DNA from: an uncultured Anaerolineales bacterium
GTDB lineage: Bacteria; Chloroflexota; Anaerolineae; B4-G1; SLSP01
Reading direction: 5' to 3'
Length of the DNA: 64,000 nt
NCBI GenBank assembly: GCA_964388385.1
Contig: CAYMAQ010000001.1
Location: forward strand, 20,607 to 84,606
This document shows positions 8,143 through 52,000 of this stretch, piece by piece. Position numbers and translations under genes: made by a program. Within the stretch, counting starts at the first letter, position 1; every line of letters begins with the position of its first letter. The notes beneath the pieces were generated by a model. The model was given only the letters and a program-made list of their open reading frames with translations, ran no database searches and had not been told where the DNA came from.

Positions 8143-10254
8143 ATGCAAACCTTGACCACAAACAAAAGATCCACATCCAGCTTCGTATTTTATCCGAGAT
8201 GCGGTAACATACACCCCGTGAAACCCAGACAGAGACCTTGGTTGTGGTGGGCAAGCGTGATCACGCTCCTGCTGCTAATATTTGGACTTCGAACCTACGG
8301 GCTTTTACAGACTCCCCCGGGGCTTACCCACGATGAAGCCAGCAACGGGCACGACAGCAACGCCATACTTTCAGGTGTTCACCGGCTCTATTTTCCAGTT
8401 GGCTACGGCCACGAACCGCTATATAACTACTCGGTAGCTCTGATGACACACTTCCTGGGTCAAAGTATCTACACACTTCGGATAACGACAGTATTCTGGA
8501 GCTTGGCCCAGGTCACAGTCACGACTGCATTAGCCAGACGCTGGTGGGGACGTAAGGCAGCTCTAGGCGTCTTGGCTGCTTACACCGTGAGTTTTTGGGC
8601 GTTGATGATGAGTAGAATCGGCCTTCGCGCGCCCACACTCCCGGCTGTCCTGGCGGCGTCCATACTGACCTTCGATCGATCGCTCACTGCGACCCAAAAG
8701 CGGCTCACCGCCGTGATTGCCGGGGTCTTGCTGGGCCTGGGATTCTATACTTATATGGCAAGCCGAGGGACTCCGCTCCTCTACGTCGGATTCCTATTGA
8801 TATTGCTTCTCCTGGATCGAACCGCGTTCAAACAAGCGTGGCAACCGACGATGATAGTCCTGCTCACTGCTGTACTCGTCGGCATGCCTCTCTTTCTCTT
8901 GTTGCGCGCCCATCCGGCACTGGAGTCCCGCATCGAGCAGCTGGGTGGCGCCCTCAAAGCACTTCAGAACGGGGACTGGGGGCCCTTGATCGAAAACATC
9001 AGAGCCAACGCCCCTATGCTCTTCTGGACGGCAGACCCCCGTTGGCTCTACAATATTGCCGGTCGACCGCTTTTGGAACCGCTGCTGGTCGGGCTTTTTC
9101 TGCTGGGCCTCGGCGCCGCGCTTAGCAAATTGCGATCCCGTCGCACGATTCTGACTTTACTCTGGCTCGGGGTTGGGCTTGCCCCGGCATGGGTCGTCCC
9201 AATCGAATACAATACACTTCACGCCATCGCCGCGATGCCTCCGATCTTTCTACTGATTGGCCTGGGTTTCCGTACGTTAACGCAGATACGCATAGGCCTT
9301 GTGCGCATTGGAATGGCTTTGCTCTTAGGCGTGGGATTCGGGATAACAGCTGTCCGCACGACGCACGCCTATTTTGTCACCTGGAGCACACAACGTGACG
9401 TGCGGGTGGCTTACCACCACCACGTGGTCGCACTGGGAAGACATCTTAATCGACAGGAGCCACAATCCCCCGTCGTCATCACCAGCCTTTATCCCGGCGA
9501 GTACCATGATCCCTACACGATGGAGGTCACGTTGGAACGCCAGGACCTCAACCTGCGCTGGTGTGATGCACGCTACGCCCTTATGGTACCCCAAGCCCCG
9601 GCGCGCTTGTACATCGAAGAGCAGACGGTGCCGCATGAGGTCTTTGACGCTCTCCTCGCAGAAAAGACTCAACATATCACAACGCTGAATTTTGACGCGG
9701 ATGCCATTCCTTCGCAGATTCGGGGATATCGATGGGAAAGTGATCGAGCGTGGGACGACCTTCGCGCCGTCCTGGGCACGGACGTTCGAGCCCTAAACGG
9801 AGATCCACCGCCCAACGTGCCGCATCCGGTCCTCACCTCCCCCATCGACTTTGGGAACACGGTCGCGTTCATAGGATATGCAGCCCACACGGTTACAGGG
9901 ACGACCGCATCTCTGGAATTGATGACAGCCTGGGAAGTCAAATCCCCCCCGGAGCAGCGAATATGGATGTTCAGTCACCTTTTATCTCCTACGGGTGAGT
10001 TACTCGATCAGGTCGACCGCCTAGATGCACCCGCTTGGCAGTGGCGGGAAGGGGATCGTTTCGTTCAGCGGCATCAACTACAAGTGCCAGAGAGCGAATC
10101 CTGCAGCGCATGTAGTATTGCCGTAGGATTCTACATCCCTTCGACACTGACCCGGTTACCCGTGCAAGCAGACACCGTGACTTCGCTTGAAGGCCCACCC
10201 CCCACGCGCATTCTGATTCCTTATCCCCAGGCGTCAGGACAGAAGGCACCATGA
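8143..10254 (+). CDS. GT-C fold polytopic glycosyltransferase (ArnT/PMT-like, GT39/GT83-type) with C-terminal soluble module
   Basis: More than 10 predicted TM helices. First periplasmic loop carries the Asp-Glu motif (LTHDEASNG...GHEPLY). No RBS, so the start is uncertain. Confidence 0.75.
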   Translation: MQTLTTNKRSTSSFVFYPRCGNIHPVKPRQRPWLWWASVITLLLLIFGLRTYGLLQTPPGLTHDEASNGHDSNAILSGVHRLYFPVGYGHEPLYNYSVALMTHFLGQSIYTLRITTVFWSLAQVTVTTALARRWWGRKAALGVLAAYTVSFWALMMSRIGLRAPTLPAVLAASILTFDRSLTATQKRLTAVIAGVLLGLGFYTYMASRGTPLLYVGFLLILLLLDRTAFKQAWQPTMIVLLTAVLVGMPLFLLLRAHPALESRIEQLGGALKALQNGDWGPLIENIRANAPMLFWTADPRWLYNIAGRPLLEPLLVGLFLLGLGAALSKLRSRRTILTLLWLGVGLAPAWVVPIEYNTLHAIAAMPPIFLLIGLGFRTLTQIRIGLVRIGMALLLGVGFGITAVRTTHAYFVTWSTQRDVRVAYHHHVVALGRHLNRQEPQSPVVITSLYPGEYHDPYTMEVTLERQDLNLRWCDARYALMVPQAPARLYIEEQTVPHEVFDALLAEKTQHITTLNFDADAIPSQIRGYRWESDRAWDDLRAVLGTDVRALNGDPPPNVPHPVLTSPIDFGNTVAFIGYAAHTVTGTTASLELMTAWEVKSPPEQRIWMFSHLLSPTGELLDQVDRLDAPAWQWREGDRFVQRHQLQVPESESCSACSIAVGFYIPSTLTRLPVQADTVTSLEGPPPTRILIPYPQASGQKAP

Positions 10255-19419: not shown

Positions 19420-21531
19420 ATGAATACACTCAGACCTCAACGGAATCGAATCAATCGTCAGATCCTAACACTTAGCGCCGTCCTTGCAGCACTGCTTTTC
19501 GGTGCACTTACGCATCGTTGGCTCGTACGTGCTGATAACGTGGTGGTTTTGCCATCAGTGATCGAAGCCAATGGAAGTATGGGAACGTGCTACAGTTTTT
19601 ATAAGCTCGAGGACAGTCAGAAGCCTCTGTCGACGGAAGCCTATGCGGCCGGTTCCCGGTGGGACCGCTTTGATTTCCGATGGAACGTAATTGAACCCAC
19701 AAAGGGGCAATTCTCGTTCGGCCCTCACGAGGAATTGGTCGACCGGAACCGGAACAACGGCCTTGAAGTCGTCGCGATCCTTGGCTCGACGGCGGAGTGG
19801 GCCTCGGGAAATTGCTCAAGTCGCTTGCAACAGACCCGGACGGACACGCTGCCGCAGGGGCACCCTCCCCCGCCGCAAAGCCCAGATGACGACATCTGGT
19901 GGCGCCCCTGCCCCCCTATCAATCTCCATCTGCCCTGGAATCACCCTGAAAATTACTGGGGACGATACGTCTACCAAACAGTCGAGCATTTCAAGGACAA
20001 GATCAACGTCTGGGAGATCTGGAACGAACCTGACCTACAATCCTTCTGGGCCAGCTCACCTGCGGACTATGCCCGGCTGCTCCAGGTCGGATACCAGGCC
20101 GTAAAGGCCGCAGATCCTGAGGCAACCGTGCTCTTTGGGGGGCTAGCGTACTGGGCGGATCCAAACTTCTATAAGCAGACCCTCCGGGAAATCCAGACGC
20201 TGGAGGGCGCCGTGGAGAACAACAGCTACTTCGATGTGCTTTCGCTTCACGCATACAGCAATATCTACCTGCTGCGACCGGTCGTCTCCGAAATTCAGAC
20301 GGAGATGATGACAACCGTCGGTCCGCATCCTATTTGGCTCACCGAGACCGGCGTGCCCATATGGGGCGAAAGCCAGCAGCCCTATCCTTATTCAAACTCG
20401 GCCACCGCGGAAGAAGCCGCCGCCTACATCATCGAAGCATATGCAGAGGCTCGTGCTGCCGGCGTTGAAAAATTCTTCGTCTTCCGCACCCATGACGAAG
20501 CGATGGGGGAGGCCTTCGGCTTGATTCGCAACGACCGTAGCCTGCGACCGGGTTACGTGGCCTATCAGGTAGCAGCCCGCTACCTGCAGGGAGAGAATCA
20601 GATCACCGGACCGTTCTCCGATGGTACCGTACGCCGCATCACCTTTTGGGGCACGCCCCAAGGCCGGATCGACGTGCTCTGGAAGGAGACGGGCGGAGAT
20701 GCAGTTCAATATCCACACCCCGCCATTGTCCCAACCGCCACGCTTATTGATCATCGCGGGCAAAGTCGGGCCCTAAATCCAACAGAAAGGACGTATACAG
20801 TGCCACTCCAACCGGCAACGGCGAATACCGGTGCCGGGGGCGCAACTATCATCGGCGGTCCGCCGGTCCTGCTGATCCAATCCGATCCGGAGCCCCCCTC
20901 CTCAGCGCTCCAACCGCTTTCTGCTGCAGTCTATACCACGGCCCTAACCCTTACGTGGAAGGTAACCGATACGGTCTCCGGCTATTGGTATGCGCAGGTC
21001 GAACAGGCACCCACATCCAATGGTCCGTGGACTTTGATCGCCGACTGGAGTGACACCAGGGGTGTAACGCACACCATCGTGAGGATCCCCTTGCATCAAC
21101 AGACATATTTCCGTGCTCGGGCCCGGAATAATGTCGGCAATTGGGAGCCGTGGCCCGCGACCGCCGAGACATGGACCACGGCCTATCTGACTCGCACGGT
21201 CAGTCTTTCACTCACAACCTATCTCGATGAAAACAGCAACAATGTATGGGATCCAGAGGAGACGCGCCCCCTCACCCCACCCGTTTTAAATTGGCGTTCT
21301 CGGGGTAGCACGGTCATCTCAGAGACCTTCGGAGTCTCGTGGCGGATCACCCAGACGGTGAGAACCGGTCCGCACATTTTGGAGGCGCAACTGCCACAGT
21401 ATCTCTACAGTCAAACTCCCTTCTTCGTCGCAGAACAACCGCTTACTCAGTCTTTTACAATGACGGTAGGACTGAAGCCCATTGGGGCGCGAAGCTATCT
21501 GCCCGTCGTCACCCGCAACGCAAACCCTTAG
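19420..21531 (+). CDS. secreted/anchored clan GH-A glycoside hydrolase (GH5/GH39-like) with Fn3 domain
   Basis: N-terminal signal anchor. WEIWNEPD (acid/base) and WLTETG (nucleophile) motifs, followed by an Fn3-like segment. The ATG sits right after a TGgTAGAAT promoter, so it looks leaderless. Confidence 0.7.
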   Translation: MNTLRPQRNRINRQILTLSAVLAALLFGALTHRWLVRADNVVVLPSVIEANGSMGTCYSFYKLEDSQKPLSTEAYAAGSRWDRFDFRWNVIEPTKGQFSFGPHEELVDRNRNNGLEVVAILGSTAEWASGNCSSRLQQTRTDTLPQGHPPPPQSPDDDIWWRPCPPINLHLPWNHPENYWGRYVYQTVEHFKDKINVWEIWNEPDLQSFWASSPADYARLLQVGYQAVKAADPEATVLFGGLAYWADPNFYKQTLREIQTLEGAVENNSYFDVLSLHAYSNIYLLRPVVSEIQTEMMTTVGPHPIWLTETGVPIWGESQQPYPYSNSATAEEAAAYIIEAYAEARAAGVEKFFVFRTHDEAMGEAFGLIRNDRSLRPGYVAYQVAARYLQGENQITGPFSDGTVRRITFWGTPQGRIDVLWKETGGDAVQYPHPAIVPTATLIDHRGQSRALNPTERTYTVPLQPATANTGAGGATIIGGPPVLLIQSDPEPPSSALQPLSAAVYTTALTLTWKVTDTVSGYWYAQVEQAPTSNGPWTLIADWSDTRGVTHTIVRIPLHQQTYFRARARNNVGNWEPWPATAETWTTAYLTRTVSLSLTTYLDENSNNVWDPEETRPLTPPVLNWRSRGSTVISETFGVSWRITQTVRTGPHILEAQLPQYLYSQTPFFVAEQPLTQSFTMTVGLKPIGARSYLPVVTRNANP

Positions 21532-22855: not shown

Positions 22856-23938
22856 TCATCGTAGCGGTATGCTATTCGGCGGGATGCGTTCCGCGCGATA
22901 TGTTCCCCAGCCGCTGGGCAGCAACTCAACGTCCCATACGATCTCGCCCTCTGATGTGACCTCCACGTAGCGTGTTGTATCCCCTTCCGTCCGGGTGCCG
23001 AATGCAATCAGGGTATTGCCGTTGGATAGACGGTCTGCATCGCCCCAGATAGGACAGAAGAGATCCGGAGTATGGCGGTAGCTCCAGACAGCCTCAGCCG
23101 TCATCGCATCTTCATCGATCCGCAGCTCCAAAGCCCGTGTAAACTCGCCACCTTGGGATTCTGGGCGGTGCGTCCCGTTATCATAAAGAAGAATATTGCC
23201 GTTGGGTTGGAGTTCGGGTGAGTGCTGGTGATAGAAAAGATCCAACGGGTCCATATCAAAGTCGCCACCGACGCCCAGTCGCCACAGGATCTCCCCGGTC
23301 TGCCGACTGATTTTAAGAAGCTGATTCATATTCCGGCAGGAGATAATGAGCGCCCTATCCTTCAGATCCGGTTCGATCGTGTTCGTATGGCTGTAGTCAC
23401 GCCGATCCATCTCAGGCTGGTGATGATCAAAGAGATGCCAATTCCAGACCATCGTATGGGTCCTCGGATCCCACTCGACGATCTGATCGCCAACCAGGGT
23501 TTCGCCGCCGTAGGTCTCGAATCTGCGCGGGTCATCAAGTAGAAACATAAAGGTTCCATCCGGTGTCAGGTGAATGTGATGATGGTTAATCATAGGGCTC
23601 TCCCATAACAAATCCCCCTTCCAACTGACCAAGGCCGGATGCACACGAGCAATGCCCTCGTGAATGTTCGTCCCGCCGATAAGCACACCTCTCTTCGTAG
23701 TTCGGCTGTCGACGTCGCCGCGGAGGTCCGGGGCGTTTGCGGTCTGTCCCCACCAGAGCCTATCGTCAGACCGCTTATGTGACCAGACGATCTCACCCTG
23801 CGGATTCAGAATCGCCACCATGATGGGTGCACCCAGATTATGATTGGAAAAATTGACCAGGGTGAGGCCGGGCTGCATTTTTTCCTCGCGACAGACGTGC
23901 ACCTCGATCTCGGGCCAAAGGGCTTTATCACCCACCAT
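22856..23938 (-). CDS. arylsulfotransferase (ASST)-like beta-propeller protein, no signal peptide
   Basis: ASST/PQQ-propeller-like repeats (HHxHL, NGNxLxxDNG). ATG 23938 with AAAGGAG RBS. Confidence 0.55.
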   Translation of the reverse strand: MVGDKALWPEIEVHVCREEKMQPGLTLVNFSNHNLGAPIMVAILNPQGEIVWSHKRSDDRLWWGQTANAPDLRGDVDSRTTKRGVLIGGTNIHEGIARVHPALVSWKGDLLWESPMINHHHIHLTPDGTFMFLLDDPRRFETYGGETLVGDQIVEWDPRTHTMVWNWHLFDHHQPEMDRRDYSHTNTIEPDLKDRALIISCRNMNQLLKISRQTGEILWRLGVGGDFDMDPLDLFYHQHSPELQPNGNILLYDNGTHRPESQGGEFTRALELRIDEDAMTAEAVWSYRHTPDLFCPIWGDADRLSNGNTLIAFGTRTEGDTTRYVEVTSEGEIVWDVELLPSGWGTYRAERIPPNSIPLR

Positions 23939-23984
23939 ACCCATCTCCTTTCGCTGAATCCCCACGACGAGACATCCTACCCGG

Positions 23985-24141: not shown

Positions 24142-27100
24142 TCAGGGGACCGTAATCTCACCGAGCAAGACAGCGTCGGTGCCGTCGGCGAGACGGAGAC
24201 GTTCTCCGCTCTCGTCATACATCCCAACGCGAAAATGATAAGTTCCATCCTTGACACCCTCGGGCACAATGAGTGTGCGGGTTTCGATAATCACCTCACC
24301 CACGGCCCAACCGGGCGTAGGGCGCGTCCAATCGACCGGTTCTCCGTCACTCTGAGCTACAAGATGCCCCCCGTCGTCAACGAGATGGACAAAAACGCGA
24401 TACGGGATCGCGATCTCATCAAGCGCCTGCCAAGCGAGTTCAACCTCCAACGACGAGCCAGGAGTCACCGACTGCTGTGGAATTGAGTAGCCAGCCAGGC
24501 GGATGACAGAACCAAACACCCGATCTGCACTCGTCAAGGTCTCAGGAACCGTCCAGATTCGCTCCGGCGCCTGGACGTCAAGAGGGATCTCGGCCAACGG
24601 GTCGCAGGAGGGGAGCTGAACTTTGATCGCGTACTGCCCACTCTCCAGAGAACCGGGCAACCGCAGGGCAGGACATCCTATCCACCGGTCACCGCGGCGC
24701 CATTGGTCCGTCGGCCACTGTGCAGCAGATGGAGGTATCTCCCAACTCTGCATAATCGTGCCCTGATCATTCTCAAGAATGACGTTTACCCATTTCGCAT
24801 GAGTGGGTTGACGGCGCGCTTCCCACACCCAGCGCAGATGCAGCGATTCTCCCGGCGCTAACGAAGCGCGGTCGGGTTCCACCTGCCACAGGCCCAGGGC
24901 ACCACAAGCCCGAAGTTCTGCCTGGGGAGTGACCCCCAGATCATGCAAAGTCGGAGGCGTATCAGGCGGGGCCAGCTGAATCGGTGCCAAAGAGAGCGCC
25001 GGCCCGACAGGATTGCCGTCGATGCCGATGACCGAGGCCGGCTCCAACGTCTTGCGGTCGAACAAGGACAATGTCGGTGTATAGATCCCCGGAGGGATTC
25101 CAGCAGGAAGACCCACCAGCTTATCCATCCGCGCATAGCTGTTCGCAGGCCAGGCTTGAACAGGAGGTGGGGTGCGCCCCCATCGAGCGGGGCGCATCAA
25201 TGTCGGCCATGCATCGCCATCGGAGTCCTCCAGGGAAAGACCGGTGTGCCAGTCTCCATCCCCTGGATTGAGCGCGCTCCAGAACATCGTGAATTCCTGG
25301 GTGGTCCCAGAGGGCACCATACCCGTCAGCCCCTCCGCACCTATCAACATAGCGCGGTCCCCAAAATTGATCTGCATCGGCGTCTCCACGCCGCGAAGGC
25401 TACCATCCTCCTGCAGCCTGGTAGCACGCCAGAGCCACGGTTGTCGATCGACAACACCCACCTTCAGTAAGATCAAAGCCAGACCCACGACAGAAGTCGC
25501 AACCACCGCATGGCGTGGTGGTCCTCGCCAACCCGTGAAGGTCCCGCCCCTGGGAAGACCGAGGGTCAGACCGACGAGGCCTGCGAGACTGATCGCGGAG
25601 ATCGCGTCTGCAGCCAATCGCAGCGGCGTCTCGCCAAAGGCTATCTCAATCTCATGCGTGCCGGCCGGCACACGAAAGGTGAGTAACCCTGAACCCGACG
25701 CCGGGACCACCGGCACCCGCACACCGTCAATGAAGGCCTTCCAGCCCGGATAGTAGAGTGCAAGATAGCGAGCTGTAAATGATTCCGGGGAAGACAACCG
25801 GATCCTTGCCCGGAGAGCGTCATAGCGGGACGCGTGAATGACAGCGCCCTCAGGAAGAGCGGTGGAGGGCAACCGCACGACGGGACCGCTGGTCTCGTAA
25901 TCATCGAGGAGCGATGGGGCCTCTACAAGGCGCTCCGCCCAGATGGGCAAATATTCACCCTTGGCCGTTGTTCCAAGCGTATCTGTCGTATGCTCCCACC
26001 GGATCATCGAATCGACCGAGATTTCAGAAGGGGGCGAACAATGGTCAGGGAAAAACCAACCGAGATTGGCAAAAATGAGTACCACTATCCCGAGTACGGG
26101 CAATAAATCCGCGCTGACGTCGTACTTTTCTCGAAGCCACGTAGAACCCGCAGCGGTTCCGGCTCCGATCAAGAGTGAAAGGGAAAACGCAGCAGGGCCG
26201 AGATAACGCCAGGGGAATTGAACGTATGATAACAACAGCACCCGATCCCAAAGAAACTGGGAAGGCGCGAGGGTCAGTGCAGAAAAAAACAGAGCCAGAA
26301 AAACCAAGCTGCCGACGAATCCGCGCTCAGGCTTCTCAAGCTTGTGCCAGAAAACGATGGGGACCAATCCCAGGATTGCAGGCACCAAACCCAAGCTTTT
26401 TTGTGGCCAATCGTTGACAAGGTTAGGATCGGCGCGTCGGGGCAGCGCGAGCAGATGATCGAGGGGCAGGAAATTGTATCGATAGTCGAAGACCCATGTT
26501 CCCAGCAGTCGCCCCGTCTGGACATACGCCCGTTCGACCATGGGTGGCAGCCAAAAAAAGGCCGTGATCCCCAATCCTAACAAGCCGAACAACGCACCGC
26601 GCCCCACAGCATCCGGTTCTCGCATCTGTATGGCCAAAAGTACAACCCAAAGGATCAGCAACGGCGCAAAGAGAAAGGCGAAGAGGTGATGGCTCATCAC
26701 CATCGCCGCAAACGCGGCGGTACCGATCCATAGAGCGCGGCGATCTTTCAACCGAACCCAGCGATGGAGCCCCCAGAGCACCAGCGGGGGCCACGCCCAT
26801 GCAAAGGCTTCCCACAAGCTGCCTCGATTGAAGATGTCGTAGGCCTGAAACGGTGCGTAGACATAGGCAATCCCCGCAACCCAACCCGCCTCGCGACCAA
26901 AGAGTTCGCGGGCCAGCTTGACCATCGTAAGTCCACCGAGGACGACGCCGAGTGCGAAAACAGCATTCATCGAAACCGTCCACGCTGCCCCCATCTGATG
27001 CAGCAACGCAACCAACGAGGGCGGAAACGGCGAAGTAAAGAGATAAAGGGGAAAGCCCAGGCCGTGTGCCATCGCAGGCGCCCAACGTGAGTAGAGAACC

Positions 27101-27291
27101 CCCTGCTCCCACAGCGATGCGATCTGCACCGCACGCCAGAGATGAAAGATGTGATCGTATCCACATGCCAACGTGTCAACCAGCAAGGGCTGTAGAGCCG
27201 GAATGCTGAAAAGCAAGGGGACAACGAGGTCGAGGGCGCGATCCACGACCCGCATAACCCGAGGTGAGTTGGCGCGTCGAGACGTTATCAT
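24142..27291 (-). CDS. giant (1049 aa) GT-C-like polytopic membrane protein (YfhO/PTPS-related-like) with three tandem C-terminal beta-rich modules
   Basis: N-terminal region has about 12 TM helices with CGYDHIFHLWR. Then a periplasmic domain with YYPGWKAFIDG, one TM helix, and three ~120-aa repeats. ATG lies immediately after the upstream gene's TAA. Confidence 0.7.
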   Translation of the reverse strand: MITSRRANSPRVMRVVDRALDLVVPLLFSIPALQPLLVDTLACGYDHIFHLWRAVQIASLWEQGVLYSRWAPAMAHGLGFPLYLFTSPFPPSLVALLHQMGAAWTVSMNAVFALGVVLGGLTMVKLARELFGREAGWVAGIAYVYAPFQAYDIFNRGSLWEAFAWAWPPLVLWGLHRWVRLKDRRALWIGTAAFAAMVMSHHLFAFLFAPLLILWVVLLAIQMREPDAVGRGALFGLLGLGITAFFWLPPMVERAYVQTGRLLGTWVFDYRYNFLPLDHLLALPRRADPNLVNDWPQKSLGLVPAILGLVPIVFWHKLEKPERGFVGSLVFLALFFSALTLAPSQFLWDRVLLLSYVQFPWRYLGPAAFSLSLLIGAGTAAGSTWLREKYDVSADLLPVLGIVVLIFANLGWFFPDHCSPPSEISVDSMIRWEHTTDTLGTTAKGEYLPIWAERLVEAPSLLDDYETSGPVVRLPSTALPEGAVIHASRYDALRARIRLSSPESFTARYLALYYPGWKAFIDGVRVPVVPASGSGLLTFRVPAGTHEIEIAFGETPLRLAADAISAISLAGLVGLTLGLPRGGTFTGWRGPPRHAVVATSVVGLALILLKVGVVDRQPWLWRATRLQEDGSLRGVETPMQINFGDRAMLIGAEGLTGMVPSGTTQEFTMFWSALNPGDGDWHTGLSLEDSDGDAWPTLMRPARWGRTPPPVQAWPANSYARMDKLVGLPAGIPPGIYTPTLSLFDRKTLEPASVIGIDGNPVGPALSLAPIQLAPPDTPPTLHDLGVTPQAELRACGALGLWQVEPDRASLAPGESLHLRWVWEARRQPTHAKWVNVILENDQGTIMQSWEIPPSAAQWPTDQWRRGDRWIGCPALRLPGSLESGQYAIKVQLPSCDPLAEIPLDVQAPERIWTVPETLTSADRVFGSVIRLAGYSIPQQSVTPGSSLEVELAWQALDEIAIPYRVFVHLVDDGGHLVAQSDGEPVDWTRPTPGWAVGEVIIETRTLIVPEGVKDGTYHFRVGMYDESGERLRLADGTDAVLLGEITVP

Positions 27292-30200
27292 TTACTGACC
27301 CTCGACCGGTATTATTGTCTCCAGGATGACGCCGTCCCCACCGAGATTTGTCGCCAACCGCGTGCCGTCCTCGTGGTAAACCCCGACCCGGACTGTGTAG
27401 GCATCAGAGCCTGCACGGTCCGACACTTCCACAGACCGAGATTCTACAACCACCTCACCGACGGCCCATCCAGGGGTCGGTCGGCCCCAAGAAACGGGAA
27501 CCCCGTCGCTCTGATCAATCATCCGACCCTCGGCATCCAATAAATGGACGAAAATCCGATAGGACTTATCCAATTCAGTGACAGCCTGCCAAGCCAGCGA
27601 GACCGTCAGGGTCTCACCGCTATCGACACCAGCCGTATCCACACGATATCCGACCAATCGAATCCTGTCGCCGAAGAGGATATCCGTCGTAGTGAGACCG
27701 TCCGGCACCGTCCATCGCCGTTCCGGCGCCTCGACCCCCAAAGCCACCCGTGCCAATGGATCAGCACACCCCTCCAAGCGCGCCTCGAAGGTGTAAGATC
27801 CGGTTGCCAAACCGCCGGGCAGTCGGAGCACGTGTTGACCCAGCCACCGATCTCCAACTCGCCATCGATCCGTAGGCCACCAACTCGCGACCGGGGGAAG
27901 CAACCAGCTATCCAAAACCTCATCGTCTCGATCGGTCAAAGAGATCTCCGCCAAACGGACACGAGCCGGCGCTCCAGTCGCTTCCCACACCCACCGTACA
28001 GCCACAAGACCACCGGGAGCGGCACTTCCGCGGTCCAGGGTCATCGACCAAAGCGCGATCCCATCACACGCACTTGGGGGTTCGGGCGCGCTCACACCGA
28101 GATCAGACAAAGAAGGAGAGACTGCGGGACGGACGATCTCGATCTCACCGAGAACCAGTTCAGTGCCCAAGGGTTCACCCTGCGGACCGAATAGCGTCGC
28201 GGGCTCGAGGGTATCGCGGTCGAAGAGACCAACCACGACATCGTAGGTCCCGGGTGGCGTACCCGGCAGCGGCGACACAAGGTGCGGGTCAAAGACAAAC
28301 TCACCGGGTTGCCACATCATTGTGGGTGGTGGCGGCTCATATCCGCGAGGCCGCAGGGTTCCGGCGGGGCTCCAAGTGCGTCCCTCCCGTCCCACCAGGA
28401 GTATCGACGTTCTATACTCAGCAGAGGGAGTCGCCCGCGCGATCCAGAGCAGATCGATCCTGAGTTCATCGTCGGCGGTCACCAAATCGGTTTCAACCCG
28501 GGCACCGATCAAATCAAGTCCTACGTCGTAGACGTGTGCGACCGGCGTCAGTCCCTCCGGCATCCGTCCTGCGCCTAAGCGAGATATCGGAACTGCCGCC
28601 CCCGACCGCCCGATGAACAACCGCAGGATGGTTATCCCCGACACCACAGCAAGCCAAACTACCGTCATAGTGGGATCCACCCTAGTAGGAGCCATTCTCG
28701 ATACATCAAGAGGGGGGCTCTCGTTACGGCAAGCAGGCCAATGGCCCCAAAGCGAGGATCCGATCCAGCCTACTAGCCCAACAACCGTCATGGACAGAGC
28801 CAAACTGCGAGCGGTCGTCGCACCCAGCCAAACTTCCACCTCATAAGTGCCGGCAGGCACCGGAAATGTGAGAAATCCGGTATCCTCCTCCGGAGAGACA
28901 GAAACCGGCTTCCCATTGACAGATGCTTTCCAACCCGGAAAGTAAAGCCCTAACCAACGTGCCTGAAATGCCTGAGGGGTTGATAGAACTAGGGAAGCAC
29001 GCAGAGGTCGGTAAACAGACTCGTCGATGGTGACACCCTCTGGCAACGAGGCGGCATCCAGTCGTTCCGGCAGCTCCCCGCGGATAAAAGCTTCGGCTAA
29101 CTGAGTATCAGTGGGATGCGTTTCGACCCAGATTGGAAAATAACTGCTTTCTGGGTCGATCCCGATCCAGCCGGCACGCTCATATCGGTAGACATCCTCG
29201 ATCGTTGGATAAGGCTCCTCAGCACAGATACCTTTAGGTGGAAATGTTCGGGGCCAGGCCAGGATCGTCAAAGCGACGACCAGGGCGAGTGCGAAAACCC
29301 CGCGAACCCGTGAAGGTCTCACGGAAGAGTCACGTAAGGACAACGGAGACGCATCCTCTCCCACAACAGCCCCAGCCAACAAACTCACCGGCAGCAAAGC
29401 CCGCCCTACCAGACGCCACGGAAACTGCACGAAAGCCAGCAAGGGAAAGGCCTCCCACACACCTACCGAGGGCGCGGTCGCAAGCCAGAGATATCCGATC
29501 GCAACACACCCAAAGAGAGCCGCTACCCATCGTCTGGCAGACGTCCCGCCTCGCCACAGAATCCACCCCAGGCCCAAGAGACCCAACAAGCCGGGACCGA
29601 TCCCCAGCGGGACGCGCATCGGGGGATTAAGATAGTTGGGGTCGTGGCTCAAAGGCGGGGTAAGAAGTATCTCCCGCCACGTCAAAAAGTTGAAGTGAAA
29701 ATCGTTGTTGCGCGTTGTTCGTGAGAGATGCAGTTGAACGAAATGCTGTTCTGTGAGGGCCGGCAGCCAGAACCACGCAGCAACTAGAGTGGCCAGACCC
29801 ACCGCCAGGAATGCCCGCGGCCAATAACCCCGACGCCGGTGAATAATCGACAGCACAAGGGTATAAAGGCCGAGAAAGGGTGCAAGCAGAAGGGACGAGA
29901 TATTGTGACTCAAAAAGAGCCCGATCAACAGGGACGTGCTTGCGACAAATGCGCCGCGTTTCCCATAAAGAATAACACGTCGCACGCTCAAGAACAGCCA
30001 GGGGAGTATCGCCAGGGCCACAGACTCCGGCATGTTACCCCGTCTCAGCACATCCAAGAGCACATAGGGTCCCAGGCCATAGGCGACGCCCGCGACCCAC
30101 CCCGCCCACCCACCCCACAGATCGTCGGCCAGCGCTCCCGCACCGATCGCGCCGGCGAGAAGACTGATACCGTAAATCAGCCCCAAAACCAGGGGAATCG

Positions 30201-30477
30201 GAATTTCGATCAGGGCCAACAACTCACCGACAAGATACGGAACCGGTTCTCGGTAATTGAAAAATGGGTATCCGTGGCCCAGGGCCAGGTTGGGAAGCCA
30301 GCGAGCGAAGACCCACCCGTGTTTGAACATATCGCGCATAGCCACAATTCGATATTGATGCCATATATTGTCATGCGTACATGGCAACGATGTCGAGTTG
30401 AGGAGCGGAATAAGGACAGGCAACAAAAGAACGAAGAGAACCAGCCACCGCACAAGGTTGGATCGTTGGTATGTCAT
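27292..30477 (-). CDS. giant (about 1061 aa) GT-C-like polytopic membrane protein, tandem paralogue of 24142..27291
   Basis: Collinear with the paralogue (CTHDNIWHQYR, YFPGWKASVNG, TM helix, three repeats). Start chosen as ATG 30477 with no RBS; starts further upstream would overlap the CDP-alcohol transferase gene. Confidence 0.7.
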   Translation of the reverse strand: MTYQRSNLVRWLVLFVLLLPVLIPLLNSTSLPCTHDNIWHQYRIVAMRDMFKHGWVFARWLPNLALGHGYPFFNYREPVPYLVGELLALIEIPIPLVLGLIYGISLLAGAIGAGALADDLWGGWAGWVAGVAYGLGPYVLLDVLRRGNMPESVALAILPWLFLSVRRVILYGKRGAFVASTSLLIGLFLSHNISSLLLAPFLGLYTLVLSIIHRRRGYWPRAFLAVGLATLVAAWFWLPALTEQHFVQLHLSRTTRNNDFHFNFLTWREILLTPPLSHDPNYLNPPMRVPLGIGPGLLGLLGLGWILWRGGTSARRWVAALFGCVAIGYLWLATAPSVGVWEAFPLLAFVQFPWRLVGRALLPVSLLAGAVVGEDASPLSLRDSSVRPSRVRGVFALALVVALTILAWPRTFPPKGICAEEPYPTIEDVYRYERAGWIGIDPESSYFPIWVETHPTDTQLAEAFIRGELPERLDAASLPEGVTIDESVYRPLRASLVLSTPQAFQARWLGLYFPGWKASVNGKPVSVSPEEDTGFLTFPVPAGTYEVEVWLGATTARSLALSMTVVGLVGWIGSSLWGHWPACRNESPPLDVSRMAPTRVDPTMTVVWLAVVSGITILRLFIGRSGAAVPISRLGAGRMPEGLTPVAHVYDVGLDLIGARVETDLVTADDELRIDLLWIARATPSAEYRTSILLVGREGRTWSPAGTLRPRGYEPPPPTMMWQPGEFVFDPHLVSPLPGTPPGTYDVVVGLFDRDTLEPATLFGPQGEPLGTELVLGEIEIVRPAVSPSLSDLGVSAPEPPSACDGIALWSMTLDRGSAAPGGLVAVRWVWEATGAPARVRLAEISLTDRDDEVLDSWLLPPVASWWPTDRWRVGDRWLGQHVLRLPGGLATGSYTFEARLEGCADPLARVALGVEAPERRWTVPDGLTTTDILFGDRIRLVGYRVDTAGVDSGETLTVSLAWQAVTELDKSYRIFVHLLDAEGRMIDQSDGVPVSWGRPTPGWAVGEVVVESRSVEVSDRAGSDAYTVRVGVYHEDGTRLATNLGGDGVILETIIPVEGQ

Positions 30478-30547
30478 CAACAGGATTGTACCATGTTCCC
30501 GTGACCCGAAAACATTCGAACGGCCGCTGATGAAAAGCTGATCGCCG

Positions 30548-31162
30548 TTACGGCTCCTGCAGCGAGACCTGATAGACGTGGAGCATCCTCTGCGCAACGG
30601 TAAACCAGGTGAGGGTCGCCATCACGACAAGCGTGAACCGAACAATCCCCGGCACAATAAGGCCGACGGCCAGGAAAACCACACGTACAACCCGCGTAAA
30701 CAAGCCTACCTCACAGGTATATCCCAGACCTTCAGCACGAGCGCGCGTGTAACTGACCATCACGGAACCAAGCAGAATCAGGAAGAGAAGCGCAATATCA
30801 GCGACCCGCCTCGCACTCAACGCCCACACCATCAAGCCGAAAAGAACCGCGCCCTCAGAGAAACGGTCCAACGTCGAATCAAGGAAGGCACCGAACCGAC
30901 TTTGTTGTCGCGTCTCCCTCGCCAAGGACCCGTCCAGACCATCGACGGAGGAAGTTAAAAGCATAAGGATCCCACCCACCTGCAACCGACCGGCAGCCAG
31001 GACAGCCCCGACCCCCGCCGTTAATAGAAATCCTAACCAGGTCAGCTGATTCGGTCGCACTCCCCATCGCGCCAAAAAACCGATAACAGGACGTATCACG
31101 CCGGCCATCCGCTTTCGCAGCCAGTCTGTGAACGTGAAAGATGTATCACGCTGGGTTGACAC
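30548..31162 (-). CDS. CDP-alcohol phosphatidyltransferase (PI/PGP-synthase-like)
   Basis: Exact D-G-x2-A-R-x8-G-x3-D-x3-D motif (DGLDGSLARETRQQSRFGAFLDSTLD) and about 5 TM helices. GTG 31162 or ATG 31108 as start. Confidence 0.8.
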   Translation of the reverse strand: MSTQRDTSFTFTDWLRKRMAGVIRPVIGFLARWGVRPNQLTWLGFLLTAGVGAVLAAGRLQVGGILMLLTSSVDGLDGSLARETRQQSRFGAFLDSTLDRFSEGAVLFGLMVWALSARRVADIALLFLILLGSVMVSYTRARAEGLGYTCEVGLFTRVVRVVFLAVGLIVPGIVRFTLVVMATLTWFTVAQRMLHVYQVSLQEP

Positions 31163-34991: not shown

Positions 34992-36887
34992 GTGCTTGGA
35001 ACAACAATCTTATTGCTTGCCGCCTTCTTGCGCCTCGCAGCGTTCGATGAAGCCCTGGTCGGGTCCGACCAGTCATCGATCTTGGCCGCGGCTGCAGAGA
35101 TAGCTGCGCTCCGGGACTTCCCTCTGGTCGGTATCAAATCATCAGTCGGCGTCATGCAGACAGCGCTGCCGGCCTATCTTGCGGCACTCGGTTGGATGTT
35201 GCTCCCTCGGGTGATCGCGGTCAAATGGCTGTACGCAGTCCTGGACTTGATAGCGCTGGCATTTCTTTTTTCTGCGGTCAAGAACGAGCGCGGATGGACG
35301 GCAGCGAGCATCGCGGGATTGCTCTACGCAACTAATCCTTGGCTGGTTGAGTACAATCGCTGGATTTGGTATCAGACACTCATTCCCACCTTTGCGACCG
35401 TCGCATTCGCAGGTCTTCTCCTGACACTATCGGATCGACAACGTACCGGATGGCCCCTCACGGTGGCTATGTCCGGAGCGGCACTGATGGGGCTGGTTCA
35501 TCTGGCATCGGTGCCTTGGGCAGCTTTGCTCTTTCTACTCGGTTTTGTGGTGGCAATTCGCCGCCGCTGGCTTCCTGCCTACGCCGCCGGTGTTGGATTC
35601 AGCTTGATCGCAGCTTATCCCTATCTCCATTACCTCATTAAGACCCGGTTTGCCGACGTAGCGATGCTGCTGACCCAGGGTGGACAGTCAAGCTCCCGCA
35701 ATTGGGCAGCTTACCGACTGACAATAGAGCTTCTCAGCGGTCAACAGGTTCTGACGACACCACGGAGCTCTCTCTGGGCCGAATCGGTCGTGGAGCCAAA
35801 AACGCTCTATTGGGTCATCCCTAGCGTGCTTGGTTTTGCCGCCATCGGCGCACTCCAGGCAATCCATCGCAGACACGCATCGGCTTATCTGCTGGCGCTG
35901 GGCTGGACGCTCGCAGCACCAACCATCTTTGTATTCACCGGATTCCATCTTCAGCACTTTTATCTACTCTTTATCTTTCCAGCTCCTTGGGTTCTCATAG
36001 GAATGTGGTCGAGTGAGACAGTACCGCCTCAGTCCGTGATTGAAGAGAGCGTCCAGCGACTTGCCCTAGCAAGTACGCTCATCGTTTCGGTGTGGTGGGC
36101 TTATCTGTGGGGTGTAAGGATTGTCTACGAGAGTCGGGGAGCCCTCCGGGCACCAACGAGAGCGTGGTTAATGGATCGTACGGTGGATCGCATCGGGCAT
36201 TTCCTCAACATGGACCCCCAAAATGAGGTCATCATACTCACCGAGTTTGGAGGCGGACTCTCTCCCTACGACTGGATGCGCAATGCACTTAATACAGACC
36301 GAGTGCGGATTGTACCCGCCGACCGGGGCTTAATCCTCCCGCCTGACGAGAGTTGTTATCTGCTCGGACCCGGGGCCACACCCGCAGACCTAACACCCGC
36401 CGCATCTTTGGATATCCAATTTGAGGAGCGGTCATCTATGACCGTAATGGCTTCGCCTCCCTGGCGGTTCTTCTGCTACAACAACCGCCCACCGATGCCT
36501 GCCCCTTTAGCCCAATGGAGAAATGGGCTGACGTTGCTCGATACGGATATCCAGGGGCACTGGCAAGCATCGGGCACGTTAAATGTGCAGCATGCCTGGC
36601 ATTATAGGACTCGGCGAGATCAGGTATATCATCTCTTCAATCACCTGACGGAAGAGGAAACGCTTGTCACCCAGGCCGATGGTGCGGGAGTCCCAACCCG
36701 ATTCTGGCGTGATGATGATGGACTGATCACCCACTTCACGCTCAAATTACCCGAGACCTTAAACGAAGAGACTCAATACCATCTTAAGGTCGGAGCCTAT
36801 ACCTGGCCCGGACTTGAGCGAGTTCTGCTCTTGGATGGGACAGACGCCTATACCGTCGAAACATTCTCCGGTAGCGTTATGCATTGA
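34992..36887 (+). CDS. GT-C fold polytopic glycosyltransferase-like membrane protein
   Basis: AAFDEALVGSD loop motif, more than 10 TM helices and the related C-terminal module. The only in-frame start is GTG 34992; an AGGAGGAG 28 nt upstream is too far to serve it. Confidence 0.65.
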   Translation: MLGTTILLLAAFLRLAAFDEALVGSDQSSILAAAAEIAALRDFPLVGIKSSVGVMQTALPAYLAALGWMLLPRVIAVKWLYAVLDLIALAFLFSAVKNERGWTAASIAGLLYATNPWLVEYNRWIWYQTLIPTFATVAFAGLLLTLSDRQRTGWPLTVAMSGAALMGLVHLASVPWAALLFLLGFVVAIRRRWLPAYAAGVGFSLIAAYPYLHYLIKTRFADVAMLLTQGGQSSSRNWAAYRLTIELLSGQQVLTTPRSSLWAESVVEPKTLYWVIPSVLGFAAIGALQAIHRRHASAYLLALGWTLAAPTIFVFTGFHLQHFYLLFIFPAPWVLIGMWSSETVPPQSVIEESVQRLALASTLIVSVWWAYLWGVRIVYESRGALRAPTRAWLMDRTVDRIGHFLNMDPQNEVIILTEFGGGLSPYDWMRNALNTDRVRIVPADRGLILPPDESCYLLGPGATPADLTPAASLDIQFEERSSMTVMASPPWRFFCYNNRPPMPAPLAQWRNGLTLLDTDIQGHWQASGTLNVQHAWHYRTRRDQVYHLFNHLTEEETLVTQADGAGVPTRFWRDDDGLITHFTLKLPETLNEETQYHLKVGAYTWPGLERVLLLDGTDAYTVETFSGSVMH

Positions 36888-36920: not shown

Positions 36921-38402
36921 CTACGGATATTCTTCAGACGCCAGAAGCCAGGCCGACAGGGCCAACATCAATCCGATATGGAGATGCACATTGTTGACGA
37001 GCAGGTTATCCACCAGGCTGTGGGCCGCAAATTGACACCACGCTCCGATCAATCCCAGCGTGAGTCCACGATGCCATCCGGTCTGCCGATGTAAAGTCGC
37101 CATCAACCGCCCAACCCATAGCCCTAACCAGAGCAGATATCCCGACAAACCCAGCAGCCCGGTCTCCGCCAACAGGTTGAGATAGGTATTATGCGCGTGT
37201 CCTAAGGCCAGAGGCCAATTGGCAAGCCGATACACGGGATAGGCAGACTCATAGCAGCCCAGCCCCACCCCGAGCCAGAAATGATCGCGCCACATGCCCA
37301 GGGCGGCCTGCCAATGGGCCACGCGCTCGAGGACAGCATAACTGGCATCGGTGACGGCAACTCCGCGCACATCGGCAAAGCGCGTGTAGGCTAAAAATCC
37401 AATCATCCGTTCACTTATCGCAGTCGGCAACCACCCGGCAAGATAGGCCCACCACCCGGCAGCCAGCAGTGCCACGACGCCTGTCAAACCCCAAAATCTG
37501 CGGCGTGGAAAAAGCACAGCTATGCCCAGCATCGCCACGCCAAACCCCATCCATCCACCACGGGACCAGGAAGCGATCAATCCGCCGACCAACCCTAACA
37601 CGGCAGCCGAAACCAACAGCCGCCGCAGCATAGGCCACCATCCCTCCCTGCCCCGCTCACGAAACCAACTGTCCCACATACCGGCGGACAATCCCACCGC
37701 AACCGCAGCGACCATCCCGACGAAACCGGCATAAGGATTCGGTTGTTGAAAGGTCCCATAAGCCCGATACAACCGCCCGAAGATCAGAAAAGCATCAGGA
37801 CCGTCGCCGCGGCCCACAAACTGCCAGAGCCCAACGCCAGCCTGAATAAGACCAGCACCGAGTAACGTGGCGATCATCACCCCACCGACAAGGTTCCGAG
37901 AATCGCTCCGAATCCGTTGTGAGACGACCAAAAAGATCAGAAGGATCTGAACCCATTTTGACAGCTCAAGAAATCCAACCCAGACATCGACCGGCGACCA
38001 TAGCGTAAGCAGATAAAGACCGAGAAGCCCCAAGAGAGGAGCCAGGAGCGGAGGGGTCGGTATTTCGATCTCCCGCCGCACCAAACCTTGCAACAACCAC
38101 GCACAGAGCGCGGAAACGAATGCGATCTGACCGATATAGTTGGGGACACCGGGAGCGGCAATGTGCAACCACGCCGTCAGCGGCCCAACCAAAAGCGAGA
38201 GGATCACCCCGACCAGCGGCTCAATCAGCAAGGCAACGAGAAATCCGCTCCCCACAACCCCAAACCCGACATAGACCAGAGGCAAGCCGGCAATCAGAAG
38301 GCCCGCAAAGCCGCCGAAAATCGAGAGGCCAATCAGGACACACCACCAGCGCCAGTGCGTGAGAACGCCCGGTGCTCTCCAGGATTTCAGTACTCGATCC
38401 AT
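36921..38402 (-). CDS. O-antigen ligase (WaaL/RfaL)-like or O-antigen polymerase-like membrane protein
   Basis: About 12 TM helices with a large periplasmic loop near the C-terminal third. Overlaps the NUDIX gene by 16 nt. Confidence 0.6.
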   Translation of the reverse strand: MDRVLKSWRAPGVLTHWRWWCVLIGLSIFGGFAGLLIAGLPLVYVGFGVVGSGFLVALLIEPLVGVILSLLVGPLTAWLHIAAPGVPNYIGQIAFVSALCAWLLQGLVRREIEIPTPPLLAPLLGLLGLYLLTLWSPVDVWVGFLELSKWVQILLIFLVVSQRIRSDSRNLVGGVMIATLLGAGLIQAGVGLWQFVGRGDGPDAFLIFGRLYRAYGTFQQPNPYAGFVGMVAAVAVGLSAGMWDSWFRERGREGWWPMLRRLLVSAAVLGLVGGLIASWSRGGWMGFGVAMLGIAVLFPRRRFWGLTGVVALLAAGWWAYLAGWLPTAISERMIGFLAYTRFADVRGVAVTDASYAVLERVAHWQAALGMWRDHFWLGVGLGCYESAYPVYRLANWPLALGHAHNTYLNLLAETGLLGLSGYLLWLGLWVGRLMATLHRQTGWHRGLTLGLIGAWCQFAAHSLVDNLLVNNVHLHIGLMLALSAWLLASEEYP

Positions 38403-50034: not shown

Positions 50035-50040
50035 GCATTT

Positions 50041-50069
50041 ATTATACAAAAAATACCTCTTAAGTCAAT
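50041..50069 (-). promoter_or_regulatory. near-consensus promoter (TTGACT-17-TATAAT) driving the valS T-box leader
   Basis: Minus strand reads TTGACTtaagaggtattttttgTATAAT. Confidence 0.45.
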
Positions 50070-50083
50070 CAGATCCAGCGAAG

Positions 50084-50111
50084 TTGACATCCTTTTTACA
50101 GCCGCTATCAT
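50084..50111 (+). promoter_or_regulatory. promoter TTGACA-16-TATCAT for the DUF2079 gene; predicted leaderless transcript
   Basis: Seen directly. The -10 ends 5 nt before ATG 50117. Confidence 0.4.
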
Positions 50112-50116: not shown

Positions 50117-52000
50117 ATGATGTCGACTACGAATGGTATCCAACACCGACGATCCCCCACCCAGGCCCTCTACGCCTGGGTAAGCACATTACGCCGCACA
50201 GACCGCATCGTCCTTGTCCTAACGGTTGTCTACGTCGCCACACTCTCGTTCCTGACAATCCGCGAGCACAACGGATTTGGTACCCGGGCCCTTGACCTGG
50301 CGAAGTTCGATCAGGCTATCTGGAACACCGCTCACGGACGGCCTTTTCGGACTACGCTGGGCGAATACTCTGTGATCCAAAGTCACTTCTCACCGGCCTT
50401 GGCGCTCTACGCCCCGCTCTTCTGGGCATGGTCCGATGTGCGCTTACTCTTCATTGCCCAGGCCTTACTGATGGCTGGGGCCGGGCTCCCAATCTACCTC
50501 TATCTCCGCAAATCGCATCCAGGGCTTGGTCTGACCGTCTTCGCCAGCTACCTGATGCACCCGATGATCCATCAGGTCAATCTCATTGAATTCCGCCGCA
50601 TCACCCTCGCTGTCTTTGCCACATCACTGACGATCCTGATGATGCTGCGGCGGCGACATCGGTGGATGTTCGTTTCACTCGCCATAGCCCTGCTCTGTAA
50701 GGAGGATATGGCTTTCACCGTGGTCGCGGTGGGTCTGTACATCGCGTTGGCCCAACGCAACTTCCGGCTTGGTATTCCGCTGACTATCTTCGGGGCCGCC
50801 TATCTTGTCCTGATCCCCTTTATTGTCCTACCGGCGCTCAACGCCGAAGCGTCCTATCGCCACGCAGCCCATAATTTCAGCTACCTGGGTGGCAGTTTGT
50901 CTGACATCGTGCCCACGCTGCTGGCTCAACCGAGCCTACCCTTGACCTATATGTTCCGCCCGGACCGGCTCTGGGCTGTGATCCGGCTCTTCTGGCCGAC
51001 GCTCTTTCTATTCGTGCTGGCTCCCGAGGTCGCCGCCTTTATGCTGCCTAATCTCGGATACCTGCTGGCCAGCACCGGTGACGCTATGGGACGACTGGAA
51101 GACTGGTATCCTGCGATTCTGCTGGTCTATCTCTACTGGGCCGTGGCTCTGGGCGCCCGGCGCTTGCCTGAGAGCTGGGTCCGGATAGCCAGCGGCGCGC
51201 TGATACTGGCTGGCACCGCCGCTTGGCTGTCCAGCAGTCCGCTCTGGCCCGGCGCCGCGTTTCAACCAAGGAATTACACGATCGTCAGGCACGACCGCCT
51301 TGTCCGCCGTGCGCTGCGCGACGTTGACCCCACCGCAGCCGTCGCAGCCCAGGATGCGCTCGTCCCTCACCTCTCCCACCGCGAGGAAATCTATCTCTAC
51401 CCGTGGATCTATGAGGGGACCTCGGTGGACACAGTGGCACTGGATCGCAGTATGGGCACCTATCCGCTCACCCTGGGAGAGTACACCTCTCGCTTCTACG
51501 ACTACCTGGCCTCAACGCAGTGGAGAATCGCGCGCCAGGTTGACAGCTTCCTCCTTTTCGAGCGCGTGGCTGCCATCACGCCGGAGGTGGCGCGCGATGA
51601 CGTGTGGAGCGGGACAGTCATGCTGACCGGCGTCAGCGCAACGCTGGCCGCGGACGGTACAGACTTCGAGGTGACCCACGCTGACCATGGCACCGCGACG
51701 CTTCGAGTCGCCCTCATCTGGGAGATGGTAGCGACAGCGGATCGCAACTACACGGTCTTCGTTCACGTCTTGGACAAGCAAGATCAGCTCCTGGCTCAAC
51801 ACGACAGTTGGCCCGCCGACGCACATCGCCCGACCAGCGTACTGGATGCGGGAACCAGGATCCGTGATGTCCATACGCTGACGTGGTCCGGTAACGGGAC
51901 TGAGGCCGACGCGTTGCGCATCGGCGTCTACGACAGCCTCACCGGCGATCCCCTCACACTCTCCGACGGTAAACCCTTTGTCGTCGTCCCTATGCCTTAA
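50117..52000 (+). CDS. DUF2079-like polytopic membrane protein (GT-C-like) with C-terminal soluble module
   Basis: HNGFGTRALDLAKFDQAIWNT...HFSPALALYAPL resembles the DUF2079 N-terminus. About 10 TM helices. The ORF-track extension to 50033 is an AT-rich promoter region. Confidence 0.65.
   Translation: MMSTTNGIQHRRSPTQALYAWVSTLRRTDRIVLVLTVVYVATLSFLTIREHNGFGTRALDLAKFDQAIWNTAHGRPFRTTLGEYSVIQSHFSPALALYAPLFWAWSDVRLLFIAQALLMAGAGLPIYLYLRKSHPGLGLTVFASYLMHPMIHQVNLIEFRRITLAVFATSLTILMMLRRRHRWMFVSLAIALLCKEDMAFTVVAVGLYIALAQRNFRLGIPLTIFGAAYLVLIPFIVLPALNAEASYRHAAHNFSYLGGSLSDIVPTLLAQPSLPLTYMFRPDRLWAVIRLFWPTLFLFVLAPEVAAFMLPNLGYLLASTGDAMGRLEDWYPAILLVYLYWAVALGARRLPESWVRIASGALILAGTAAWLSSSPLWPGAAFQPRNYTIVRHDRLVRRALRDVDPTAAVAAQDALVPHLSHREEIYLYPWIYEGTSVDTVALDRSMGTYPLTLGEYTSRFYDYLASTQWRIARQVDSFLLFERVAAITPEVARDDVWSGTVMLTGVSATLAADGTDFEVTHADHGTATLRVALIWEMVATADRNYTVFVHVLDKQDQLLAQHDSWPADAHRPTSVLDAGTRIRDVHTLTWSGNGTEADALRIGVYDSLTGDPLTLSDGKPFVVVPMP

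Follow-up and report, generated by a model that had tools for sequence, protein, structure and literature searches.

A C-terminal Ig-like module common to several GT-C glycosyltransferase families, found mainly in Chloroflexota

Why do membrane proteins of different glycosyltransferase families end in the same soluble pattern? The question is raised by a stretch of 64,000 nucleotides from an uncultured Anaerolineales bacterium (contig CAYMAQ010000001.1, positions 20,607 to 84,606), here called the window. The window has a GC content of ~56% and encodes seven large polytopic membrane proteins, named A, B, D, F, G, I and L. We found that ten copies of one module of ~120-145 amino acids (aa) form the extreme C-termini of six of them: A, B, F (three copies), G (three copies), I and L. 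The analysis supports one module common to at least five GT-C families, spread by domain shuffling, mainly in Chloroflexota, and we regard it as a solid new domain family, not as a new kind of system. As for its role, we give an even chance to the proposal that this shuffled module is an extracytoplasmic ligand-binding accessory domain, most likely glycan-binding.

The ten copies are listed below with their scores in a hidden Markov model (HMM) built from window copies (seed HMM) or from proteins outside the window (external HMM).

9805..10251, + strand: protein A module, aa 556-703, single, C-terminal; external HMM E 2.5e-17, seed HMM 175 bits
11853..12188, + strand: protein B module, divergent, aa ~535-646; seed HMM E 2e-5
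24967..25389, - strand: F copy 1 (F1), aa 635-775, LFDRKTLEP variant; external HMM E 1e-19
24610..24918, - strand: F copy 2 (F2), aa 792-894, WPTDQWRRGD variant, C-terminal end shortened; external HMM E 3.7e-14
24148..24579, - strand: F copy 3 (F3), aa 905-1048, terminal, full motif; external HMM E 9e-44; modelled with AlphaFold2 (AF2)
28123..28548, - strand: G copy 1 (G1), LFDRDTLEP variant; external HMM E 6.7e-28
27775..28065, - strand: G copy 2 (G2), WPTDRWRVGD variant; external HMM E 1.3e-13
27313..27738, - strand: G copy 3 (G3), terminal; external HMM E 3.1e-38
36486..36869, + strand: protein I module, aa ~507-626; external HMM E 5.8e-11
51590..51988, + strand: protein L module (DUF2079 host), WPADAHRPTSVL subtype, without the conserved W and E; external HMM E 4e-22

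In protein A, the module envelope covers aa 556-678 of 703, and the interval 9850-10254, which was noted initially, encodes aa 570-703. The seed HMM was built from the A, F3, G3, I and L copies and run against all 693 six-frame open reading frames (ORFs) of the window. Beyond its own members it matched only B (E 2e-5), F2 (E 1.6e-8), G1 (E 1.8e-6), G2 (E 1e-4) and F1. Furthermore, when the C-terminal 170 residues of each protein were compared by BLASTP with the large proteins of the window, the C-termini of the others were recovered, along with the internal copies in F and in G. To avoid circularity, the external HMM was built from 397 domain copies of non-window proteins only; it was significant for nine of the ten window copies (E 6e-11 to 9e-44). 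In the shuffle control, the best of 2000 shuffled copies reached 7.8 bits vs 38-144 bits for the real copies. The three classes of copies defined by their position in F and G were mutually homologous in profile-profile comparison (probability 100%, E 1e-47 to 3e-56). The low pairwise identities (22-38%) and the behavior of the B module with the external HMM would fit a similarity that is compositional or due to chance, but we rejected this explanation and leave it practically no probability, given the external E-values, the shuffle and profile-profile results and the one confident fold predicted.

The B module retains FVH and IGLYD..SG.R..LADG and has lost the PT..W motif. It was not significant with the external HMM (E 0.38). 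In hhalign comparisons it matched the five-copy window alignment A1 with 95.5% probability (E 1.4e-8) and the external copy-3 profile with 91.8% probability (E 7e-7, score 41.6), whereas the best of 60 shuffles scored 17.5 and the shuffled controls had probabilities of at most 2%. On these profile matches, we consider the B module divergent yet homologous.

The initial annotation of this DNA had claimed that these C-termini share one homologous pattern, and the external HMM, hhalign and profile-profile tests agree with it; the profile comparison that it had proposed as a check found significant similarity and refuted the compositional alternative. Its pattern matches the consensus of the external family, '...LLGYdL....v.pG..l.ltLyWqAl.....dY.VfvhLlD..G..wgQ.D..P..G.yPTs.W..GEvv.D.y.l.vpp.aPpG.Y.L.vGlYd..tg.rLpv', and the variants it had listed are present in the sequences (WPTDxWxxGD in F2 and G2, LFDRxTLEP in F1 and G1). 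It had also described the protein starting at 10251, which is B, as aligning more weakly, in line with the external E-value of 0.38 and the hhalign probabilities of 92-96%. The protein it had placed at 50117 does carry the module, but its start has to be corrected: the ORF is 50033-52000, and 50117 is an internal ATG.

The proteins that carry the module have a polytopic membrane core with a GT-C fold. They are given here together with D, a paralogue in the same window that is free of the module.

8143-10254, + strand: host A, 703 aa, ArnT/PMT_2-like GT-C protein; PMT_2 23.1 bits, below the gathering score
10251-12242, + strand: host B, 663 aa, PMT_2 GT-C protein; 29.5 bits, above the gathering score
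16335-18344, - strand: paralogue D, module-free, 669 aa, PMT_2 GT-C protein
24142-27291, - strand: host F, 1049 aa, YfhO-type GT-C protein with three modules; YfhO E 1.3e-13
27292-30597, - strand: host G, 1101 aa, PTPS_related/YfhO-type GT-C protein with three modules; PTPS_related 29.9 bits
34992-36887, + strand: host I, 631 aa, no Pfam match, GT-C fold
50033-52000, + strand: host L, 655 aa, DUF2079; E 7.5e-54

Protein I has 83 orthologues in Anaerolineae, some of which match PMT_2 or are named 'ArnT family'. It has the acidic first loop of GT-C enzymes: directly after the first transmembrane helix (TM1), D26 is invariant and F18 and E20 are conserved to at least 90% in a 77-sequence alignment. 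Each of the 91 near-complete carrier ORFs from the fetched loci encodes 5-16 (median 11) hydrophobic segments ahead of its first module. Among 19 non-window carriers scanned with Pfam, 15 matched PMT_2, PMT, PTPS_related, YfhO, TMEM260-like or DUF2079; four had no match, and a non-GT-C domain was found in none of the 19. The cluster of one Pfam-negative carrier includes a member named 'Gpi18-like mannosyltransferase'. The same contig is present in microbial-mat metagenomes, where the proteins are named 'hypothetical' or 'ArnT-like' (A is an 'ArnT-like glycosyltransferase').

Neither the seed nor the external HMM detected the module in paralogue D, the 132-aa C-terminal tail of which is unrelated to it. 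Within the same genome, D serves as a natural control. The soluble regions preceding the module are unrelated between host families. Since the carriers are GT-C proteins only, D lacks the module and the preceding regions are unrelated, the module was probably spread by grafting, that is, by domain shuffling, and not with one ancestral architecture. In line with this, the initial annotation had described a common module grafted onto different membrane scaffolds, which fits the presence of a module-free GT-C paralogue in the window. Vertical inheritance from a single GT-C ancestor was rejected on the grounds of D, of the host-family Pfam models, which do not include the module, and of the single copies, which all resemble copy 3.

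We performed an exhaustive profile search over 1.84 billion representatives of clusters at 50% identity. The module matched 31,794 proteins at E<=1e-3; the number was still 22,998 at E<=1e-10, and 7,203 at E<=1e-30. Three copies were present in 142 of the 150 top matches, mostly on proteins of ~1000 aa resembling F and G, and in all 150 the last module ends within 35 aa (median 8) of the C-terminus. In the representative genomes of GTDB, we confirmed 589 stretches with the motif Y[TR]VFVHL[LV][DG] as relatives. This locus search used a narrow copy-3 alignment (A3), and the sample is therefore biased toward relatives of F3. When GTDB taxonomy was read from the best 80 of the 589 stretches, 79 came from Chloroflexota; the exception lies on a short contig of a Verrucomicrobiota metagenome-assembled genome (MAG). 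The Chloroflexota carriers comprise Anaerolineae, Ardenticatenaceae, Promineifilaceae, Caldilineaceae, Chloroflexia, Thermoflexia, Chlorohelix and Aquidulcis, and the other named matches are from Chloroflexota, except for one Armatimonadetes fragment. Apart from the MAG contig (L051, 3.7 kb) and the Armatimonadetes fragment (P0235), all named carriers in these samples are from Chloroflexota; the two exceptions could reflect binning errors or real lateral spread. Word-indexed homologue searches with the module profiles returned short metagenome fragments only, and tblastn of a consensus-like module against plasmids gave no match.

What is conserved within the module? Judged by sequence, the copies in triple-module proteins are positional orthologues: F1 and G1 cluster with the first copies of other such proteins (32 of the top 40), F2 and G2 with the second copies, and F3 and G3 with the third. 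Copy 3 is also the class that the single modules of A, I, L and B resemble. In 143 terminal copies, a set of mostly polar and aromatic residues is nearly invariant: F62 (frequency.97), H64 (.94), Q75 (.97), D77 (.99), P80 (.99), P86 (.97), T87 (.98), W90 (1.0), E94 (.92), D98 (.97), G118 (.98) and Y120 (.98). In copies 1 and 2, H64 is replaced by R or Q (.4) and F62 falls to ~.3, and copy 2 has also lost Q75 and D77. The structural residues W49 and G111 (at least.93) and Y113 (.78-.97) are kept in all three copy classes. Within the protein I family, conservation of the module matches that of the catalytic transmembrane (TM) core: the mean major-residue frequency is.60 vs.62, and 21 of 126 module columns vs 58 of 378 core columns are at least 95% conserved.

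The residues of the terminal copy are the same across hosts, though the domain that precedes the module differs. Such domain-independent conservation argues for a ligand site rather than an interface between domains. On the F3 model, the motif residues are found in strands 4 and 5 and in the loop leading to strand 6. Since side chains alternate along a strand, F63 and H65 would face away from V62, V64 and L66, which belong to the core.

The modules of DUF2079 hosts (51590-51988 in the window; P0004, P0006, P0010, P0012, P0013 and P0026 outside it) form a subtype of their own, in which 'HDSWPADAHRPTSVL' replaces 'Q.D..P....PT..W..GE'. The WPADAHRPTSVL subtype of the L module also occurs on other DUF2079 fragments, P0013 and P0026. 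With the otherwise invariant W and E missing, the site may have been retuned per host family.

The AF2 model of F3 (aa 905-1049), computed from a 28-sequence alignment, is an eight-strand all-beta sandwich with one short helix (pLDDT 95.7, pTM 0.87). Full-length protein I was also modelled with high confidence (pLDDT 94.9, pTM 0.92), with the module strands at 507-626, and the full-length pTM suggests that the module packs in a defined position on the protein. The top Foldseek ranks were taken by RhoGDI, NPC2/ML and FnIII-like domains of glycoside hydrolase (GH) family 3, with TM-scores of only 0.44-0.58. Sequence-profile searches of the PDB gave nothing convincing (best RbmA, E 0.003, and a sialidase linker, E 0.005) and no carbohydrate-binding module (CBM). 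Among the InterPro member databases, the search for family models covered Pfam-A (2025 copy) and NCBIfam (release 20), neither of which has a model over the module in the six window proteins or the 19 external carriers. No published description of the module was found in the literature on DUF2079, Chloroflexota GT39 and GT-C enzymes with Chloroflexi CBMs. We conclude that the module has a generic immunoglobulin-like (Ig-like) fold, yet is a sequence family of its own. The Pfam scan of isolated modules that is detailed below speaks against membership of a CBM or ML family and gave no match to Wzt_C.

The initial annotation had envisaged a CBM-like beta-sandwich. The predicted fold is indeed a beta-sandwich of eight strands, as are the carbohydrate-binding modules of CAZy, but it is generic Ig-like, and CBMs are no closer to it than other sandwiches. 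The Pfam search that the annotation had proposed as a check gave no model over the module, and NCBIfam has none either.

On which side of the membrane does the module lie? Single-sequence hydropathy was too crude a count of TM helices to fix the topology, and the AF2 helices of protein I were used instead. Protein I reads as 11 TM helices with nine K/R in the inside loops and one in the short outside loops. The model thus places the N-terminus inside and, presumably, the acidic first loop (FDE, D26) and the tail 382-631 outside. In F and G, a soluble loop of 142-148 aa is followed by a TM helix matching the end of the YfhO profile. Between this YfhO-type extracellular loop with its TM helix and the three modules, there is one additional TM helix (F, aa 415-609; G, aa 450-658), which would be an adaptor helix returning the tail to the outside. 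The extracytoplasmic position, which had been proposed initially, follows from the topology reading of protein I and the extra helix of F and G, and we infer it from these two lines.

These results lead us to the following proposal. An autonomous Ig-like (E-set type) sandwich of ~130 residues would have been shuffled onto the C-termini of polyprenyl-phosphate-dependent GT-C enzymes, where it would face the outside of the cell, as the GT-C active site does. In the terminal copy, a putative ligand site would be formed by an F and an H of strand 4, the Q-x-D of strand 5, the P...PT-x2-W-x2-GE loop into strand 6, and the D that follows. Its ligand would most likely be a glycan, either the polymer that serves as acceptor or product or a shared glycan of the envelope, bound possibly via a metal ion. 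Binding would hold the substrate polymer beside the catalytic core, or the enzyme on the polymer. Copies 1 and 2 of F and G would be older, with a partly decayed site, and probably form a stalk before the terminal copy.

The ligand-binding part of this proposal is drawn from the near-invariant polar and aromatic constellation, which is confined to the terminal copy, and from its conservation independent of the neighboring domain. The conservation pattern favors a ligand site, without naming the ligand. That the ligand is a glycan is suggested by the exclusive association with enzymes that glycosylate extracytoplasmic acceptors, by a fold compatible with CBMs and the carbohydrate-binding domain (CBD) of Wzt, and by a neighborhood rich in envelope-glycan genes, which encode a Wzy_C-type protein, an NDP-sugar epimerase/dehydratase and a GH-like protein.

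Several observations weigh against ligand binding, or against a glycan as the ligand. Searches of Pfam and PDB profiles found no sequence link to any binding family, and the fold is generic: in the fold comparison, CBMs were no better a match for the module than arrestin, macroglobulin or GH2 linker domains. When 28 isolated module copies were scanned with Pfam at E<=10, the matches were marginal Ig-like families only, none significant, and no CBM was among them. That the conserved residues cluster in space and are exposed at the surface is proposed from the strand pattern. Furthermore, the site deviates in some copies: L lacks W and E, B lacks PT..W, and F3 and G3 have E where the family has D. 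In the giant proteins F and G, the copy with the intact site is separated from the TM core by the longest stretch of chain, which fits wall anchoring as well as acceptor delivery. Finally, the taxonomic range was read from a sample skewed to close relatives.

To our knowledge, the accessory substrate-binding domains known on GT-C enzymes are each confined to a single enzyme family. The mycobacterial GT-C arabinosyltransferases EmbA/B/C (Emb) and AftD carry soluble extracytoplasmic beta-sandwich CBMs after the GT-C core, which bind the polymer acceptor away from the active site. The module resembles these in being a C-terminal sandwich, sometimes present in more than one copy. The C-terminal O-antigen-binding domain of Wzt differs in that it is cytoplasmic and sits on the ATPase of the Wzm-Wzt ABC transporter; its sequence identity to the module is 11-13%, without a Pfam match, and many unrelated sandwiches score the same Z. 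According to PMC7759382 and PMC10214176, the MIR domain of PMT and the TPR domain of TMTC/TMEM260 are lumenal or extracytoplasmic accessory domains on GT-C cores of the same clan and aid substrate selection. MIR, which sits within a loop, is a beta-trefoil, and TPR consists of helices, whereas the module is an Ig-like sandwich at the extreme C-terminus. By analogy, the nearest functional counterparts would be the Emb/AftD CBMs, the MIR domain of PMT and the Wzt CBD, which work in the way that is proposed here for the module; by sequence, the module belongs to none of them.

Could the module instead be a structural Ig-like scaffold or spacer without a ligand of its own? Domains of this kind are the Ig-like/FnIII domains of GH2, GH3, the sialidase linker and dextranase, as well as RbmA, which are mostly structural linkers in soluble enzymes. 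They lack the F-x-H / Q-x-D / PT-x2-W-x2-GE motif, and none of their E-values reaches a safe threshold. The H, Q, D, E and D that terminal copies keep at.92-.99 across hosts with unrelated neighboring domains would be superfluous in a mere spacer, as would, in the protein I family, conservation like that of the catalytic core. We consider a pure scaffold unlikely.

In another explanation, the module is a protein docking domain that assembles GT-C paralogues into one complex or binds one protein common to them as partner or acceptor, for instance an S-layer or sheath protein. The PMT and TMEM260-like families elsewhere are protein O-mannosyltransferases. The neighborhood encodes no obvious common partner, and a conserved set such as Q-x-D, W and E is met with at sugar or metal sites more often than at protein interfaces, which makes docking distinctly improbable in our estimate.

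A lipid-binding sandwich of the RhoGDI or ML (NPC2) type, handling the polyprenyl-phosphate carrier, would account for the best Foldseek matches (RhoGDI and NPC2/ML, E 2e-5 to 1e-4) and for the lipid-linked donor, a feature common to the host families. We regard it as very unlikely: Pfam ML matches only one of the 28 copies, at E 0.12, and the TM-scores given above do not place the module in either family.

The ligand-binding proposal has a bolder form, which is speculative and to which we assign a low probability. The module would be a wall-targeting 'address' domain, phylum-wide in Chloroflexota and specific to them. Via the H/Q-x-D/W/E site, it would dock all extracytoplasmic GT-C enzymes onto a single envelope polymer peculiar to the lineage; its counterparts would be the SLH, LysM or choline-binding repeats. 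The envelope architecture and glycans of Chloroflexota are still poorly known. If true, the address reading would imply a new glycan-recognition family and an undescribed common polymer of this poorly understood envelope.

The new element in our results is one accessory module common to many GT-C families, forming a very large family (~32,000 clusters at 50% identity) without a model in the Pfam-A or NCBIfam copy searched. A family definition would improve the annotation of thousands of Chloroflexota proteins now called 'hypothetical' or 'family 39'. Moreover, the small, well-folding module could serve as a probe for the envelope glycan or for partners of the host enzymes.

Several features of the neighborhood and of the host genes remain to be described. 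A Wzy_C (O-antigen ligase/polymerase-type) membrane protein is encoded at 36921-38402 (- strand), convergent with protein I, and an NDP-sugar epimerase/dehydratase lies near it at 38851-39801 (- strand). The two genes support an envelope-glycan neighborhood, which is interspersed with unrelated genes. Among the GT-C genes, 19420-21531 (+ strand) encodes a protein of 703 aa with weak GH39/GH5/GH42-type matches in its N-terminal half; the C-terminal half of ~300 aa is without assignment. Immediately downstream of F, an arylsulfotransferase (ASST)-like protein (22856-23965, - strand; E 1e-31) is encoded, which raises the possibility that an envelope component is sulfated.

The stop codon of A (TGA, 10252-10254) and the start codon of B (ATG, 10251-10253) overlap as ATGA, which suggests that these two PMT_2-type paralogues are translationally coupled. 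Of the four metagenome contigs carrying protein A, three also have the A-B pair, and the fourth stops at the gene. The stop codon of G (TAA) abuts the start codon of F (ATG) without a spacer (27289-27294), and a same-strand tandem of triple-module GT-C genes for proteins of ~1050 aa recurs in many Chloroflexota loci (L005-L014, L017, L019, L024, L040, L046 and others). Finally, the listed GTG start of protein I (34992) may be too far downstream: its orthologues are ~12 residues longer at the N-terminus, and the frame is open from 34959.

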